IMG/VR virus record: IMGVR_UViG_3300015214_000024
Span: 297,787-361,786 of that record
DNA from: a virus
Lineage: Duplodnaviria > Heunggongvirae > Uroviricota > Caudoviricetes
Direction: 5' to 3' (one strand)
DNA length: 64,000 bases
The notes below the pieces were generated by a model. It ran no database searches. It was not told the origin of the DNA and saw only the letters and a list, made by a program, of their open reading frames with translations. Position 1 is the first letter of the stretch. Every line of letters begins with the position of its first letter. The translations under genes were made by a program, and so were the position numbers. Below, one piece after another: positions 578-17,448 of this stretch.

Positions 578-661
578 CGGAGTAGTGGGGATTCGAACCC
601 CATACCTTGCGGTACCCTCTGTTTTCGAGGCAGTGTTAGAACCTATCTAATTACGTACTCC
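578..661 (-). tRNA. tRNA-Ser(CGA), non-canonical 8/4 fold, possibly degenerate
   Basis: acceptor GGAGTA(C)GT/ACTACTCC (8 bp plus bulge), D-stem TTAGA/TCTAA, loop CTCGAAA, long V-arm, T-arm GGGG-TTCGAAT-CCCC; anticodon stem has two mismatches; CCA not encoded. Confidence 0.7.
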
Positions 662-892
662 AAAATTGTCAACCAGTTTTACTAATTCTTTTTCAGCCAA
701 ATACATTTCAACTTTAGTATTGTAAAACCTTAATATTTCTTTATTAAAATTATCAATTCCATATTTTTCAATAGCATATCTTATTCTTTTACCAGAACCC
801 ATATAACCATCATCGAGATTTTTAGTCGAATGGGCACCAATGTAAAACTTACCATTTATTTGGTTTGTTATTTTATAAACATAGTAAAACAT
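647..892 (-). pseudogene. truncated GIY-YIG (Seg-like) homing endonuclease
   Basis: YVYKITN...FYIGAH...DDGYMGSG catalytic domain only (81 aa); frame ends inside the tRNA-Ser(CGA) gene. Confidence 0.7.
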
Positions 893-930
893 ATTTTCAA
901 ATCCGGCGCGCTTGTCCGGTCAATCTTCCA

Positions 931-1122
931 TTAGTGTGAATATCTACATTCACTTATGCTATCACATTCAAATCCTGGAGCACCACAAATTGAACAGTCA
1001 AGCTTGGTTTGTCTAAACCATTCCTTTTTGCCGTTATGTGGATTGATTTCACAATAAAGTTCATTAATCCTGCCTGGTGACTTGAATGATCCAAACAACC
1101 AACTTAGCACTTTACCAAACAT
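931..1122 (-). CDS. small Cys-rich hypothetical protein
   Basis: 63 aa, strong AAGGAG SD, CxxC motif. Confidence 0.65.
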   Translation of the reverse strand: MFGKVLSWLFGSFKSPGRINELYCEINPHNGKKEWFRQTKLDCSICGAPGFECDSISECRYSH

Positions 1123-1171
1123 AGCATCTCCTTTCCTTTCTGTCTATAAAGGAAGAAATGAAATATGTCAA

Positions 1172-1263
1172 TGGCGGACAGTGAGGGATTTGAACCCTCG
1201 GAACCCCTTACGAGGTTCGGCACATTAGCAGTGTGCTGGTTTTAGCCACTCACCCAACTGTCC
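1172..1263 (-). tRNA. tRNA-Ser(GCT), canonical 7/5
   Basis: GGACAGT/ACTGTCC acceptor, GCACA-CTGCTAA-TGTGC anticodon arm, long V-arm, encoded GCCA. Confidence 0.95.
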
Positions 1264-1271
1264 ATAAAATT

Positions 1272-1361
1272 TGGAGGAAGACGGGATAATCGAAATCCAC
1301 ACCATATTTCAGGTGCCCACTCCTTAGCAGGGAGGTCCAGAACCTTTCTGGTTCATCTTCC
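1272..1361 (-). tRNA. tRNA-Ser(GCT), non-canonical 8/4 fold
   Basis: acceptor GGAAGATG/CGTCTTCC (8 bp), D-stem CCAGA/TCTGG, loop CTGCTAA, T-stem GGAT/ATCC (4 bp), TCCA end. Confidence 0.88.
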
Positions 1362-1366
1362 ATATA

Positions 1367-1487
1367 TACAACAAAGACAGGATTCGAACCTACGTGGTCC
1401 CAGGGCGTCAAATTAATTTGTCCGGATCCTAAGACCATCCCGCTTCTGGGCGGGCTACCTTAAACCTATCTCAGCCACTTCATTGTA
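1367..1487 (-). ncRNA. tRNA-like RNA with ~45-nt variable arm and 6-nt anticodon loop
   Basis: 10-bp terminal stem TACAATGAAG/CTTTGTTGTA, D-like arm, CCCGC-CCAGAA-GCGGG, TGGTCTTAGG...CCTGGGACCA hairpin, GTAGG-TTCGAAT-CCTGT. Confidence 0.65.
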
Positions 1488-1488
1488 T

Positions 1489-1579
1489 TGGAGGAGCCGT
1501 GGGTACTCGAAACCCATACCGTTTTTTAGGTATCAACCGCTTTCCAGGCGGTGGTTGCGCCCTGGCAACTAACGACTCC
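1489..1579 (-). tRNA. tRNA-Ser(GGA), non-canonical 8/4 fold
   Basis: acceptor GGAGTCGT/ACGGCTCC (8 bp), D-stem GTTGC/GCAAC, ACCGC-CTGGAAA-GCGGT, T-stem GGGT/ACCC, TCCA end. Confidence 0.88.
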
Positions 1580-1585
1580 GCAAAT

Positions 1586-2257
1586 TTAAACTACTGTTCT
1601 TCCTTTATACCATCCTATTGGAATTACCATATCCTTTTTAATTTTCTGGTTTTTAGATCCGTCAGTAATCCACATAGTTCCGAATTGTGAATTTTTCCTT
1701 CCAGTTTGGAAGCCATCATTTTTTTCTTTCCATTTTTTAATAGCACTATCAGATTTAGATAATTTACTAAATTCTTTAGCTTTTTCTGGATTCAAGCTAT
1801 GGAATTCTTTCATAGCTTCAGAACCTTTAACCCATCCTTTACATTCCACAAACCGCAATCTTGCTTTTTCAAGTATCCATTCATAACCTGGTTTACCAAA
1901 TGGTGAAATAAATTTATTCCATTCTGCCTTAGTTTCAAATCCTCGATCTTTGTAATAAGAGCCTTCTAAGTTGTATATTGTAAAGCCACCAGTTCCGCCA
2001 AGCATTAAATTATAAGTATTGTTATCTTTTACAAAATCTTCGTTAACTATTTCACGTTCTTTATTATTCATATCATTTTCATTATCAAAAATATATAATG
2101 TTTCTTTATCAAAGTTTTTTATTCCATATTTTTCTATAGCAGATTTTATTAATTTTCCTGAACCCATATAGCCATCATCTAAATCATCAGTAATATGCTT
2201 GCCAATATAGATCTTACCATTTAGTTTGTTTGTTATTTTGTAAATTATATTAAACAT
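1586..2257 (-). CDS. GIY-YIG (SegB-like) homing endonuclease
   Basis: IIYKITN...IYIGKH...DDGYMGSG...YNL; C-terminal GTMWITDG...GWYKGR DNA-binding motif; start reset to 2257 because the longer ORF overlaps a tRNA. Confidence 0.85.
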   Translation of the reverse strand: MFNIIYKITNKLNGKIYIGKHITDDLDDGYMGSGKLIKSAIEKYGIKNFDKETLYIFDNENDMNNKEREIVNEDFVKDNNTYNLMLGGTGGFTIYNLEGSYYKDRGFETKAEWNKFISPFGKPGYEWILEKARLRFVECKGWVKGSEAMKEFHSLNPEKAKEFSKLSKSDSAIKKWKEKNDGFQTGRKNSQFGTMWITDGSKNQKIKKDMVIPIGWYKGRTVV

Positions 2258-2277
2258 AAAAATCCATTCAATTTTTG

Positions 2278-2364
2278 AGGACAGTGTGGGATTCGAACCC
2301 ACGGGACCCTCGCAGGTCCTCCGGTTTTCAAGACCAGTGCAATCGGCCACTCTGCCAACTGTCC
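2278..2364 (-). tRNA. tRNA-Ser(TGA), canonical 7/5
   Basis: GGACAGT/ACTGTCC, CTGGT-CTTGAAA-ACCGG, long V-arm, GTGGG-TTCGAAT-CCCAC; CCA not encoded. Confidence 0.93.
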
Positions 2365-2372
2365 ATATATTT

Positions 2373-2461
2373 TGGCGGAGGGTAGGCGGAATCGAACCCC
2401 TGACCTTACGGTTCCACTAGTTTTCAAAACTAGGTGTGCATCCCCGGCACAATTACTCTCC
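2373..2461 (-). tRNA. tRNA-Ser(TGA), non-canonical 8/4 fold
   Basis: acceptor GGAGAGTA/TACCCTCC (one A-C mismatch), D-stem TGTGC/GCACA, CTAGT-TTTGAAA-ACTAG, bulged 4-bp T-stem, GCCA end. Confidence 0.8.
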
Positions 2462-2462
2462 A

Positions 2463-2490
2463 ATAAAAAACCCCCTAGTTTCCTAGGGGG
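2463..2490 (-). terminator. intrinsic terminator of the serine attenuator
   Basis: CCCCCTAG-GAAA-CTAGGGGG followed by TTTTTTATT, immediately before the first tRNA-Ser. Confidence 0.9.
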
Positions 2491-2524
2491 TGTAACAGCA
2501 AACCTATCATTCAATAGATACTGT

Positions 2525-2572
2525 TCACCCCATTGGGATGGACGAACTACTGGATGATGAAATAATGAACAT
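2525..2572 (-). CDS. attenuator leader peptide MFIISSSSSSSIPMG
   Basis: ATG TTC ATT ATT TCA TCA TCC AGT AGT TCG TCC ATC CCA ATG GGG TGA; CAGGAAAG SD upstream. Confidence 0.85.
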   Translation of the reverse strand: MFIISSSSSSSIPMG

Positions 2573-2665: not shown

Positions 2666-3304
2666 TTATGACCAATATTCATATAAACCAGACTGCATAG
2701 TATCCAGATATTCATCCCGGACACCGAAAAACTTAGCCAAATATCTTACCAACAAAGGTGTTGGAGGGGCGAATCGATCGATCAAATCCTCTTTGGAAAA
2801 ATCAATTATATCACCATTTTCCATTGTGATTGATTGCTTAACGTCACGAAACAGCCTAATTGCTTCTGATTTAACCTTTTGTCCATTTGGTATGTATGTC
2901 ATTTTACCGTGCTCATATGGATAAATCCCATATGGAATATATTTGAATGACGGTTCCATACCATAATCATTATTCAAAACTGAATTATAGTAATCCATTG
3001 AATCATTATATCGGTGCCAATCAGGCATACCAATATGGGTAAAAAGCATTATATTAGATAAGCCAGTTTCAGTTTGGTAACTCACAAACTGACTCATATA
3101 TGCTGATAAATTTTGTTTGTGCCCATCGCGCCAATAAAGTCTCATTTCAATATCTGAATCATCTTCAATCAGACGCAGAAAGGTATTAAAGTCAGAAATT
3201 TGGGTTTCAAGAGCATATTCGTACTGGTCCCAATCAACTCTCGGGTCGCGATCCACGATATTATGAAAACCGTAACCTAATACTTTATGAATCTTAAAGC
3301 CCAC
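2666..3304 (-). CDS. hypothetical protein
   Basis: 212-aa ORF, no recognised motif. Confidence 0.75.
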   Translation of the reverse strand: MGFKIHKVLGYGFHNIVDRDPRVDWDQYEYALETQISDFNTFLRLIEDDSDIEMRLYWRDGHKQNLSAYMSQFVSYQTETGLSNIMLFTHIGMPDWHRYNDSMDYYNSVLNNDYGMEPSFKYIPYGIYPYEHGKMTYIPNGQKVKSEAIRLFRDVKQSITMENGDIIDFSKEDLIDRFAPPTPLLVRYLAKFFGVRDEYLDTMQSGLYEYWS

Positions 3305-3353: not shown

Positions 3354-4598
3354 TCAAAGGATAATTCGATCTGGAAAATATGGTTGAAGTATTTCAGGTA
3401 TTGCCACCCAGCCATCTGGCTGTTGATAATTTTCCAAAATAGCTACAAGAGTCCGACCAACAGCCAATCCGCTACCATTTAATGTATGGACCAAAGTAGT
3501 CTTTTTATCTCCTGGCAGCTTTACTCGTGCGGCCATACGTCGGGCCTGAAAATCGCCACAATTGCTGATCGAGCTAATTTCACGCCAAGCCTTTTGGCCC
3601 GGAAGCCAAACTTCCAAATCGTAAGTTTTTCTGGCGCCAAATCCCATATCACCCGCTGCTAATAAAACTCGCCTAAATGGTAAATCAAGTTTCTTAAGAA
3701 TCATTTCCGCAGCATTCAGCATATGCTGATGTTCATATCCGCTTTGGTCTGGAGTAGAAATGGTTACCATTTCTACTTTATGGAATTGATGTTGGCGTAT
3801 GAGCCCGTGAGTGTCTCTACCAGCACTGCCTGCTTCGGCCCTAAAGCACGGTGTTAGTCCAACCATACGCAATGGTAAATCACCATAATCCAAAATTTGA
3901 TTGGCAACCAAATTTGTCATTGGCACTTCGCCAGTTGGGATCAAATATCGACCATCTACGGTTTTAAACAAGTCCTCTTCAAATTTTGGAAGCTGACCGG
4001 TACCAAACATCGTTTGCTGATTCACCAAATAAGGAACATCTACTTCAGTAAAACCATATTCCTCAACGTGATGGTCAATCATAAACTGACCAATCACTCG
4101 GTGCAATTTAGCCAATGTGCCAGTCATCACATTAAAGCGAGTCCCTGCGATTTTTGTTGCTTGTTCAAAGTTAAATCCTGGAAGAAGGTGATGCTCTTTG
4201 ATTTCAAAATCAAATTCAGGAATGTCATCCTGATGTACTACAAGATTATTTTCCTCACCACCTTCTGGAACATCGTAGTGTGGAATATTTGGTACCTTAG
4301 CCCAAATGCTATCACGAACATCTTTCAACAAATCAACATTTTTCTTATAATGATCAATTTGCTCATTAGTTGCTTTTGCTTGTTCTTTCAGATCTTCAGC
4401 AGGTAATTTAAGCCTGTATGCATCACCAATTGCTTTATTAAGGTTGTTTCGTTCATTTTCAGCAGCTTGCAACTTTGTTGTATAAAGACGAAATTGCTCA
4501 TCAGCCCAAAACAAATCGTCAATTGCTCCTCCGCCGCGCCCCTTTAATGCACGTTTTACGGCTTCGCGATCAGTTCTGACATCATCAATATTAATCAT
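3354..4598 (-). CDS. serS: seryl-tRNA synthetase
   Basis: N-terminal coiled coil; LIPTGEVP, FRAEAG (motif 2), HQFHKVE, REISSISNC, HTLNGSGLAVGRTL (motif 3). Confidence 0.98.
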   Translation of the reverse strand: MINIDDVRTDREAVKRALKGRGGGAIDDLFWADEQFRLYTTKLQAAENERNNLNKAIGDAYRLKLPAEDLKEQAKATNEQIDHYKKNVDLLKDVRDSIWAKVPNIPHYDVPEGGEENNLVVHQDDIPEFDFEIKEHHLLPGFNFEQATKIAGTRFNVMTGTLAKLHRVIGQFMIDHHVEEYGFTEVDVPYLVNQQTMFGTGQLPKFEEDLFKTVDGRYLIPTGEVPMTNLVANQILDYGDLPLRMVGLTPCFRAEAGSAGRDTHGLIRQHQFHKVEMVTISTPDQSGYEHQHMLNAAEMILKKLDLPFRRVLLAAGDMGFGARKTYDLEVWLPGQKAWREISSISNCGDFQARRMAARVKLPGDKKTTLVHTLNGSGLAVGRTLVAILENYQQPDGWVAIPEILQPYFPDRIIL

Positions 4599-5244
4599 TC
4601 CAAAAATCCTTCATTCCACCGTTCATATACGACTTGGCTGTAATAATTTTTCCCGTTCTTTCATCCCAAGCCTGATTATCCTGAAAACGAATTGTGCGAA
4701 TTTTATCACCACGCTGGCCAGAGCCACTTTCCTTATACTGTTCAGTCTTTAGACTAGAAAGAACAGCATTATCCATTGATTGTAACTTATTTGCTAGGGC
4801 CTGTCGAGCCTCTTGGTAATTAGATTCTCTAGAACGGCTTTGGCGTACTTCCACCAAACCTGTTGGAATATGGATCAATCTGCAGGAACATTGGTGCTTA
4901 TTTCGGTGTTGGCCGCCTTTACCTGTCCCAGAAAACCATTCTACCCGTAAATCGCTATCGCGTATTTCAGTTTTTTCCATTTTGGCGTCAATTAAAGCGA
5001 CCTTTACTGACGAAGTATGGACTCTGCCCCTGCGCTCAGTTGGAGGTACACGCTGGAAACGATGGCCGCCAACTTCTTTCTTAAGATTGTCGTTTGGTTT
5101 TTTTAGCTCAATAAAATAGCCTTGACCCTCTGGGCCGTGGCGGTGCAGTCAGCCATCAAGAGCTTTGAGGTATGAGTGATACAAATCTTTCGCTAATAAT
5201 TGAGCGTCTTTTCCGCCTTCACCAGGCATAATAACTAATTTCAT
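4591..5244 (-). CDS. RF1-like class I peptide chain release factor lacking domain 1, with in-frame UGA at codon 32 (5151-5149)
   Basis: single frame MKLVIMPGEGGKDAQLLAKDL...DG*LHRH...EVGGHRFQRVPPTERRGRVHTS...GKGGQHRNK...RGDKIRT; AAGGA SD; the ORF track catches only 4591..4980. Confidence 0.85.
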
Positions 5245-16710: not shown

Positions 16711-16738
16711 AGAAAAAGCAGCCTAAGCCGCCTTTTCT
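16711..16738 (-). terminator. terminator after tmRNA
   Basis: AGAAAAGGCGGC-TTAG-GCTGCTTTTTCT. Confidence 0.75.
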
Positions 16739-16975
16739 GTTAAATTCTGTTGCTAGGTTTTAACTACCCCGGCAGGCTGCTTACGCAGCAAGAGCCATAA
16801 CTGTATTATCATTGTCAGTTATTTTATTTAGTAACTTGTCTCGAGATTCTTACTTCTTGCACGTCGATCCTGGTTCAGGCCCTAAAAAGGTTTCCAGTAT
16901 TGCCACCGGTTGGTGGACCTGCCGGGTTCCGCCCCCGGGTCCGCTACAGCGTTCATTCACTGTCATCAACTTGTT
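16739..16975 (-). ncRNA. ssrA: circularly permuted two-piece tmRNA
   Basis: acceptor piece ending CAGGTCC-ACCA (16911) precedes a 28-nt spacer and a coding piece starting GGGCCTG (16882); 7-bp stem with G3:U70; tag ORF 16816-16781 DNDNTVMALAA*. Confidence 0.92.
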
Positions 16976-16981
16976 ACAACA

Positions 16982-16989
16982 TATTTATA
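16982..16989 (-). promoter_or_regulatory. T4-type late promoter upstream of tmRNA
   Basis: TATAAATA exact match; TTGACA also 18 nt upstream. Confidence 0.65.
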
Positions 16990-17000
16990 CAACATATCTA

Positions 17001-17448
17001 AATATGCTGTCAAGAACTATCTTCACATTAAGCTTACCTCGCCGGCAAGATTAATCTCAGCAAACAAAGGATTGTCACCCAATGCTAATGTATAAAAATA
17101 GTTCTTGACAGAATATTTAATATGATTGGGCTATAAAGGGATCGTTCGAGGATCCGAATACTAAATGCCCAACCATAATGGTTTATGATAAGCTTACGTT
17201 TCGCCAGTATTTCTACTAACAGTGGCTGAAAGAACACAATTCTCCATACCTAACCTGCTATCAATAAACTGTTAATTTTAGATCCGAAAACATATTAAAG
17301 CCAGGGTTCCGGAAAATAGCTTTATATGCCCACACATTATGAATAATAGATTTACCGTAGGACGGAATCACACCCAACAAAATCGCTTGCAAGCCGATTT
17401 TTGTCCCCTACTCGGTGACGCTTCTGAGGCGCACGATCTAAAATTAGC
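17001..17448. ncRNA. candidate ~450-nt structured ncRNA C
   Basis: no credible ORF; 14-bp and 20-bp long-range inverted repeats plus internal hairpins; strand uncertain. Confidence 0.55.

Follow-up and report, generated by a model that had tools for sequence, protein, structure and literature searches.

A conserved four-member set of (8/4) serine tRNA genes downstream of a seryl-tRNA synthetase gene in a megaphage lineage

The serine tRNA array and its annotation

The serine tRNA genes of a 455,147-bp virus record (IMG/VR record IMGVR_UViG_3300015214_000024, Caudoviricetes; CheckV completeness 100%) were analysed in a window of 64,000 nucleotides, which covers positions 297,787 to 361,786 of that record. 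ARAGORN reported 69 tRNA genes in this genome, the majority of them on the plus strand at 180–262 kb. The serine tRNAs of the whole genome are confined to window positions 578–2461 on the minus strand, where six tRNA-Ser genes and one tRNA-like RNA are located. An earlier note on this DNA, made from the letters alone, had placed six serine tRNAs here, and ARAGORN, Rfam and hand folding confirmed all six at these positions; all are on the minus strand. The genes were lettered in transcription order as G, F, E, D, C, B and A, and the array runs G, F, a GIY-YIG gene, E, D, C, B, a 63-aa open reading frame (ORF), a truncated GIY-YIG remnant and A.

Two of the genes, B (GCU) and F (UGA), are canonical, with a 7-bp acceptor stem, a 5-bp T-stem (7/5) and the identical acceptor sequence GGACAGU. 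The other four have an 8-bp acceptor stem and a 4-bp T-stem (8/4), and their anticodons (UGA, GGA, GCU and CGA) cover all four serine isoacceptor classes. Three genes (C, E and F) carry U at the discriminator position. On each of these points the earlier note had read the array correctly. The RNA genes of the array are as follows:

2373..2461, minus strand: G, tRNA-Ser(UGA), 8/4 type; G73, CCA encoded; ARAGORN, hand fold, covariance models
2277..2364, minus strand: F, tRNA-Ser(UGA), canonical 7/5; U73, CCA not encoded; ARAGORN, Rfam tRNA model at 55.2 bits
1489..1579, minus strand: E, tRNA-Ser(GGA), clean 8/4; U73, CCA encoded; ARAGORN (drawn as 8/4), hand fold
1369..1484, minus strand: D, tRNA-like RNA; Rfam tRNA model at 21 bits, sub-threshold; conserved
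1272..1361, minus strand: C, tRNA-Ser(GCU), clean 8/4; U73, CCA encoded; hand fold, covariance models
1172..1263, minus strand: B, tRNA-Ser(GCU), canonical 7/5; G73, CCA encoded; ARAGORN, Rfam tRNA model at 55.7 bits
578..661, minus strand: A, tRNA-Ser(CGA), 8/4; G73, CCA not encoded; hand fold, covariance models

The note's expectation that annotators would overlook the 8/4 genes was borne out. ARAGORN reported only B, E, F and G and missed A and C, that is, two of the four 8/4 genes. The Rfam tRNA model (RF00005) at its gathering score detected only B and F (about 55 bits) and none of the four. In a permissive Rfam scan, A (31 bits) and G (36 bits) matched the tRNA-Sec model RF01852 below its gathering score of 47, and C and E matched no model. 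Covariance models were built from the genes themselves: one in the 8/4 frame from E alone (R1) and one from all four sequences (R2). R1 scored C at 55, A at 45 and G at 34 bits and the 7/5 genes at about 19 bits, and together with the hand folds it placed all four genes in a single 8/4 frame (34–119 bits). R2 scored E at 99, C at 89, A at 81 and G at 79 bits; over the whole genome the four genes stood at 79–99 bits and the next best match at 32. In the other phages described below, ARAGORN missed most or all of the serine set, and phages of this kind would wrongly seem to be without serine tRNAs.

Fold of the four genes and covariation across 38 sequences

Folded by hand, C and E each show an acceptor stem of 8 bp and, after a linker of 2 nt, a D-stem of 5 bp whose loop contains GG. 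The anticodon stem has 5 bp and a 7-nt loop with U33 and A37. The stem of the variable arm, also of 5 bp, directly adjoins the T-stem, which has 4 bp and a TTCGA loop; the discriminator is U73, and CCA is encoded. C has G-C as its eighth acceptor pair, whereas the 7/5 fold would require a fifth T-stem pair of U.C. The earlier note had described four 8/4 genes with 5-bp D-stems. This fold could be placed for all four, but only C and E are clean, and G and A are irregular. In G, the acceptor stem is mismatched at A5.C, a G bulges from the 3' side of the T-stem (GGGG/CC-g-CC), and no more than 3 bp form in the variable arm. A requires a bulged C after acceptor position 6 for the 8/4 fold, and only three of the five pairs of its anticodon stem form, with mismatches A27.A43 and C31.A39 at the two ends. 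The GG D-loop and the TTCGA T-loop are retained in all four genes.

The genes were compared with those of six related megaphage contigs (L040, L041, L044, L045, L046 and L047), whose seryl-tRNA synthetases (SerRS) are 64–81% identical to that of the window. The closest orthologues of G and A, both in L046 (80% and 93% identical, respectively), keep the bulge of G and the same bulge of A, and the C31.A39 mismatch was found in most CGA orthologues. The irregularities of both genes thus have counterparts in their nearest orthologues and are features of the lineage rather than fresh decay. In several relatives the CGA 8/4 tRNA (L041:12349-12437, L044:11365-11451 and L045:9080-9168) has a T-loop of AGCAUNU instead of UUCGANU and a D-loop without GG; the pattern of these changes suggests a co-varying alternative elbow.

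Covariation was assessed in an alignment of 38 8/4 tRNA-Ser sequences. MAFFT alignments of the paralogues were inconsistent with the structure, and covariance-model-guided alignments were used instead. The 8/4 structure is paired in 94.2% of cells, compared with 63.8% in shuffles (none of 500 as high) and 39–46% in slid controls. Both sides vary in 25 of the 27 pairs, and compensatory changes are present in every helix. The eighth acceptor pair is Watson-Crick in all 38 sequences (GC 13, UA 11, AU 10, CG 4) and the 4-bp T-stem is paired in 100% of cells, whereas the fifth T-stem pair of the rival 7/5 fold is present in only 16 of 38; its 5' partner is nearly always U, and it pairs only where the 3' base is A or G. 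Both of these columns, the eighth acceptor and the fifth T-stem, are anchored by ungapped neighbours. Moreover, the 5-bp variable-arm stem is 96.8% paired, and the 5-bp D-stem, 88% paired, changes on both sides in all five pairs and closes a D-loop of 5–7 nt, not 4. The 8/4 fold is thus strongly supported by covariation, far beyond chance. A 7/5 fold or a lack of conservation had been named by the note as outcomes that would speak against its proposal; what was found is an eighth pair in 38 of 38 sequences and a set that is kept in six relatives.

The 38 sequences also share serine features. All have the anticodon UGA, GGA, GCU or CGA in a 7-nt loop with U33 and a purine at position 37, and the loops match those of the 7/5 copies (CU-NNN-AA). 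At the discriminator, 25 sequences have U, 12 have G and one has A; among the window genes, C and E have U, and A and G have G. The pairs G1-C72, G2-C71 and A3-U70 are near-invariant and are common to the 7/5 copies and to alphaproteobacterial tRNA-Ser. Normanly, in 1992, reportedly placed these three pairs within the E. coli SerRS identity set.

The four genes have the structure that defines (8/4) tRNA-Ser, a subgroup of the allo-tRNAs, and the class is already known. It has been described in bacteriophages, Proteobacteria and Clostridia (Mukai et al., 2017, Nucleic Acids Res 45:2776, PMC5389517), as the earlier note had stated for some bacteria and phages, and 8/4 allo-tRNAs were serylated and translated in E. 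coli (PMC5389517).

D, the seventh RNA of the array, is of another kind. It folds in a 7/5 frame and has G73. Its D-arm is Leu/Ser-like, and its variable arm, about 45 nt long, bears a conserved AATTAATTTGA-like loop. Its 'anticodon' loop has 6 nt in the window (CCAGAA) and 4–7 nt in the five relatives in which D is conserved (L040:10677-10804, L041:11621-11751, L044:8683-8810, L046:11203-11337 and L047:6931-7063). Because the size of this loop varies, D probably does not decode. It lies after the GGA gene in the window and before it in the relatives. An intron-bearing tRNA was returned by ARAGORN only with forced settings, as an implausible Val(GAC) with a 46-nt intron, and was rejected.

The mismatches and bulges in G and A, and the presence of a conserved, probably non-decoding RNA in the same array, are what one would expect if some or all of the four genes were non-translational, either as decaying pseudogenes or as regulatory or decoy RNAs like the inactive allo-tRNAs near toxin–antitoxin loci; inactive allo-tRNA(UAU) species have indeed been found by Mukai et al. 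(PMC5389517). We regard this explanation as highly improbable. Serine anticodons in 7-nt loops with U33 and a purine at 37 in every one of the 38 sequences, the compensatory changes throughout the helices, the GG D-loop and TTCGA T-loop of the four window genes and the conservation of the irregularities themselves all argue against it.

Conservation of the serine set and its gene context

In each of the six relatives, the SerRS gene is followed downstream by 8/4 genes in the order UGA, GGA, GCU and CGA, as in the window. The 7/5 copies differ in number: the window, L040, L041 and L046 have two each, L045 has one, and L044 and L047 have none. In L044, extra UGA and GCU copies are themselves 8/4. 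Because the 8/4 genes are constant across the relatives and the 7/5 copies range from none to two per locus, the 8/4 genes appear to be the core serine set of this megaphage clade and the 7/5 genes an accessory set. The CGA copy, for which the weakest conservation had been expected, occurs in every one of the six.

The individual genes differ in their best orthologues (E, 97% identical in L047; A, 93% in L046; C, 82% in L041; G, 80% in L046), and the gene at the same position in the remaining relatives is only about 60% identical. Orthologue identity spans 56–97%. Alleles turn over in a mosaic pattern, with sequence exchanged but shape and anticodon preserved. F is 74–82% identical to alphaproteobacterial tRNA-Ser, compared with 60–74% for the 8/4 genes.

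In addition, an IMG/VR pattern scan recovered three unrelated, GC-richer phages of 100–133 kb (L013, L021 and L022) with large tRNA clusters in which 8/4 is the sole shape of tRNA-Ser; L022 has GGA, UGA, CGA and GCU 8/4 genes in tandem. A SerRS gene is lacking from all three, and sequence identity gave no clear isoacceptor orthology between the megaphages and these smaller phages. Blastn of the stretch from C through D to E against GenBank phages returned nothing related, and the GenBank phage matches to the whole region were homing endonucleases only. Salicola phage SCTP-2 was rejected as a relative, its match consisting of homing-endonuclease similarity and a canonical 7/5 tRNA-Ser. Two IMG/VR contigs with a SerRS of 46–49% identity (L002 and L003) were likewise set aside; they have no clear 8/4 serine gene, and the sole match, at 42 bits, folds as 7/5. 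A host origin of the 8/4 shape was considered and rejected, as five alphaproteobacterial genomes have 7/5 tRNA-Ser only. A scan of 151 Alphaproteobacteria for the 8/4 form gave no match at E <= 1e-10, a weak negative given the strict filters and the few candidates scored per genome.

The earlier note had proposed the 8/4 genes as a second, structurally distinct back-up set that sustains decoding when host nucleases or toxins destroy ordinary tRNA-Ser. Several observations would fit this proposal. The sampled Alphaproteobacteria have only 7/5 genes, so that the 8/4 body is unlike that of the likely host; the 8/4 alleles turn over fast between related phages; and the UCN isoacceptors of tRNA-Ser are VapC targets in mycobacteria, with phage tRNAs proposed to act against tRNases (van den Berg et al., 2023, eLife 12:e85183, PMC10264068). 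However, the 8/4 genes are the constant set in seven genomes or contigs and the 7/5 genes the variable one, the three unrelated phages have 8/4 genes only, and it is the 7/5 copies that look like alphaproteobacterial host tRNA-Ser; the description as 'second' or 'back-up' is therefore not supported. Moreover, the 8/4 and 7/5 genes do not differ in their anticodon loops, and the cited serine-cleaving VapCs (PMC10264068) cut within the anticodon, against which an altered acceptor and T domain is no shield. No bacterial nuclease that recognises tRNA-Ser by its acceptor/T geometry turned up in the literature searched, and the one bacterial Schlafen to have been characterised cleaves tRNAs for Lys, Met and Ala in their anticodon arms. 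We therefore consider a back-up role unlikely.

The genes and signals around the RNA genes are as follows:

3354..4598, minus strand: phage SerRS, 414 aa; Pfam Seryl_tRNA_N and tRNA-synt_2b
2666..3304, minus strand: 212-aa ORF that separates the SerRS gene from the array; no Pfam match; in all relatives
2525..2572, minus strand: leader ORF MFIISSSSSSSIPMG; read from the sequence; conserved in six relatives
2462..2491, minus strand: intrinsic-terminator-like hairpin and T-tract; terminator scan; hairpin kept in relatives
1586..2257, minus strand: GIY-YIG (SegE-like) homing endonuclease gene; Pfam PF19835 at 22.2 bits, weak (cut-off 25)
647..892, minus strand: truncated GIY-YIG homing endonuclease remnant, 81 aa; Pfam PF19835 at 36 bits

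The SerRS gene lies about 0.9 kb upstream of the array. Its closest homologues (64–89% identical) are on related megaphage metagenomic contigs of up to 166 kb, and the next tier, at about 50–57%, is alphaproteobacterial (Sphingomonas, Polymorphobacter, Brevundimonas and Magnetospirillum). The syntenic order is Smr, CCA-adding enzyme, TilS-like, cytidylyltransferase-like, RF-1-domain gene, SerRS, an ORF of about 211 aa and the tRNAs. The 212-aa ORF of the window had no Foldseek match in the PDB with an AlphaFold2 model at a predicted local distance difference test score (pLDDT) of 70. The RF-1-domain gene (window 4591–4980, minus strand), which overlaps the SerRS start, encodes 129 aa here and 87–188 aa in the relatives, where a conserved 31-aa ORF precedes it. 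A second class II aminoacyl-tRNA synthetase (393 aa, with an HGTP_anticodon domain) often follows the ORF of about 211 aa in the relatives.

The adjacency and synteny of the SerRS gene and the serine array in seven genomes or contigs could suggest a private channel, in which the 8/4 tRNAs and the phage SerRS are co-adapted and partly orthogonal, and decoding is independent of the host SerRS. U73, frequent in phage tRNA-Ser of both shapes, points the same way, as the host-type genes examined all have G73. Nevertheless, such a channel seems improbable to us. There are phages with full 8/4 sets and no SerRS and, conversely, two contigs (L039 and L043) with a SerRS gene and no serine array within the locus. 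Acceptor pairs 1–3 equal those of host tRNA-Ser, and allo-tRNAs are charged by E. coli SerRS (PMC5389517).

Upstream of the array, the leader ORF MFIISSSSSSSIPMG has 15 codons, of which seven are serine codons (UCA, UCA, UCC, AGU, AGU, UCG and UCC) that call on all four isoacceptor classes (UCA, UCC, AGU and UCG). It lies 111 nt upstream of G, and 111–126 nt upstream of the first tRNA in the six relatives. A strong terminator hairpin follows, and its T-tract ends directly 5' of G. Leader and hairpin are conserved in all six relatives, and the pairing of the hairpin is kept by compensatory changes. We infer from this arrangement that the seven-serine leader and the terminator may act as a serine attenuator. 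A predicted switch that would sense slow reading of serine codons before the array fits ordinary serine decoding.

The two GIY-YIG genes appear within the array as listed. The GenBank phage matches of the intact gene are annotated as homing endonucleases, and the 3' end of the truncated remnant overlaps the 5' end of tRNA A by 15 nt. Neither the intact nor the truncated gene occurs in L040 or L041, whose arrays are compact.

Serine decoding and relation to known systems

The affinity of the SerRS, together with an A73 tRNA-His without G-1 and a permuted alpha-type tmRNA encoded in the genome, points to an alphaproteobacterial host. The tmRNA gene is at window 16736–17017 on the minus strand (RF01849 at 91 bits, RF04321 at 82 bits). 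Two tRNA-His genes of different types lie outside the window (G000:C1:180242-180314 and 180628-180699), both missed by ARAGORN. One has A73, no G-1 pair and a possible 8-bp acceptor stem (GTGGCATA/TGTGTCAC), and is of the alphaproteobacterial or 8/4 type; the other is canonical, with G-1:C73. Similar pairs are present in L039 and L043. The genome also has two amber-suppressor-like tRNA(CUA) genes (G000:C1:15281-15358 and 165512-165586), with TAG terminating only 10 of its 217 long ORFs, and ARAGORN tRNAs with 4-nt (CUUA) and 2-nt 'anticodons' at 183179 and 183417.

The genome has a GC content of 39%, and its serine codons are UCA (34%), UCU (19%), AGU (19%), AGC (13%), UCG (8%) and UCC (7%). 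UGA and GCU, the two anticodons present in duplicate, thus read the serine codons in heaviest use. Taken together, we think it likely that the four genes encode functional serine elongator tRNAs, which belong to the (8/4) tRNA-Ser or allo-tRNA class and form the conserved core decoding set of an alphaproteobacterial megaphage lineage. The most likely role of the array is ordinary serine decoding for an AT-rich phage. In the proposed mechanism, the 8-bp acceptor stem would stack on the 4-bp T-stem to give 12 bp in total, as in a 7/5 tRNA. The four 8/4 genes would be co-transcribed as one array with the two host-like 7/5 copies (UGA and GCU), their expression lying behind the seven-serine leader peptide and the terminator. 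Both the phage SerRS encoded next to the array and, probably, the host enzyme would charge the tRNAs, which would supply decoders for the AT-rich serine codons of the phage.

Several points weigh against this interpretation. We infer expression, serylation, use in translation and attenuation from the fold, conservation, serine anticodons, gene context and codon usage observed here. The alignment was fitted to the 8/4 model, and its pair counts are somewhat inflated. With their mismatch and bulges, both G and A could be weaker or partly disabled. The terminator-like hairpin lies immediately upstream, so that transcription of the array depends on read-through. The codon-compensation argument, which relies on a predicted host, is indirect. 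Finally, ordinary decoding alone does not explain why the 8/4 shape is retained, which raises the question of what selects for an 8/4 body when the likely hosts use 7/5. One speculative and, in our view, doubtful answer is that the 8/4 tRNAs are kept as a serine channel that is untouchable by a host tRNase or toxin, which would read acceptor, T or D geometry or need a free U8, or by a phage factor that disables host-type tRNA-Ser; the SerRS, the attenuator and D would then be parts of one self-regulating, defence-resistant module.

Comparison among the phages turns the expected picture around: 8/4 is the stable, inherited form of tRNA-Ser in the megaphage clade and in unrelated phages, and the textbook 7/5 form is an optional extra. 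Moreover, the 38 naturally occurring 8/4 sequences, together with the phage SerRS genes that go with them, add to the material for tRNA engineering, in which allo-tRNAs already serve as a chassis.

Among known systems, bacterial tRNA-Sec (selC; 8/5) resembles the four genes in its 8-bp acceptor stem, long D-stem and long variable arm, and is likewise serylated by SerRS. However, tRNA-Sec has a 13-bp branch and a UCA anticodon, whereas the four genes have a 12-bp branch and serine anticodons; on these grounds, and on the sub-threshold RF01852 scores, a tRNA-Sec identity was rejected. With canonical 7/5 tRNA-Ser the four genes share the serine anticodons, the pairs G1-C72, G2-C71 and A3-U70, the class II variable arm and the 12-bp acceptor/T branch. 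They differ from it in that the T-stem has 4 bp, the D-stem has 5 bp and closes a small loop, the variable arm directly adjoins the T-stem and the discriminator is mostly U73; position 8 is paired, and there is therefore no free U8. Phage anti-tRNase tRNA sets (van den Berg et al., 2023, PMC10264068) are also phage-borne and unlike the host versions, but they carry anticodon-loop substitutions at known cleavage sites, whereas the loops here are ordinary and the acceptor, T and D regions are altered.

The closest match is the (8/4) tRNA-Ser of Mukai et al. (PMC5389517), with which the four genes share the 12-bp branch, the long variable arm, G73 or U73 and the serine anticodons; the D-arm agrees in part, its stem being long and its loop short. 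That class also occurs in phage tRNA clusters, including those of alphaproteobacterial phages, where it co-occurs with an A73 (8/4) tRNA-His lacking G-1 (PMC5389517), as an A73 tRNA-His without G-1 accompanies it here. It was found as false positives of a tRNA-Sec model, in keeping with the sub-threshold tRNA-Sec matches of A and G. In contrast, the D-loop here has 5–7 nt rather than being a tetraloop, and in two members a single nucleotide bulges out, from the acceptor stem in A and from the 3' side of the T-stem in G. Furthermore, a full four-isoacceptor set stands here beside 7/5 copies, immediately downstream of a phage SerRS gene and a serine-codon leader and terminator, in a 455-kb phage. 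The complete 8/4 set across a megaphage clade, the variable 7/5 copies alongside it and the linkage to SerRS and leader may go beyond what Mukai et al. described.

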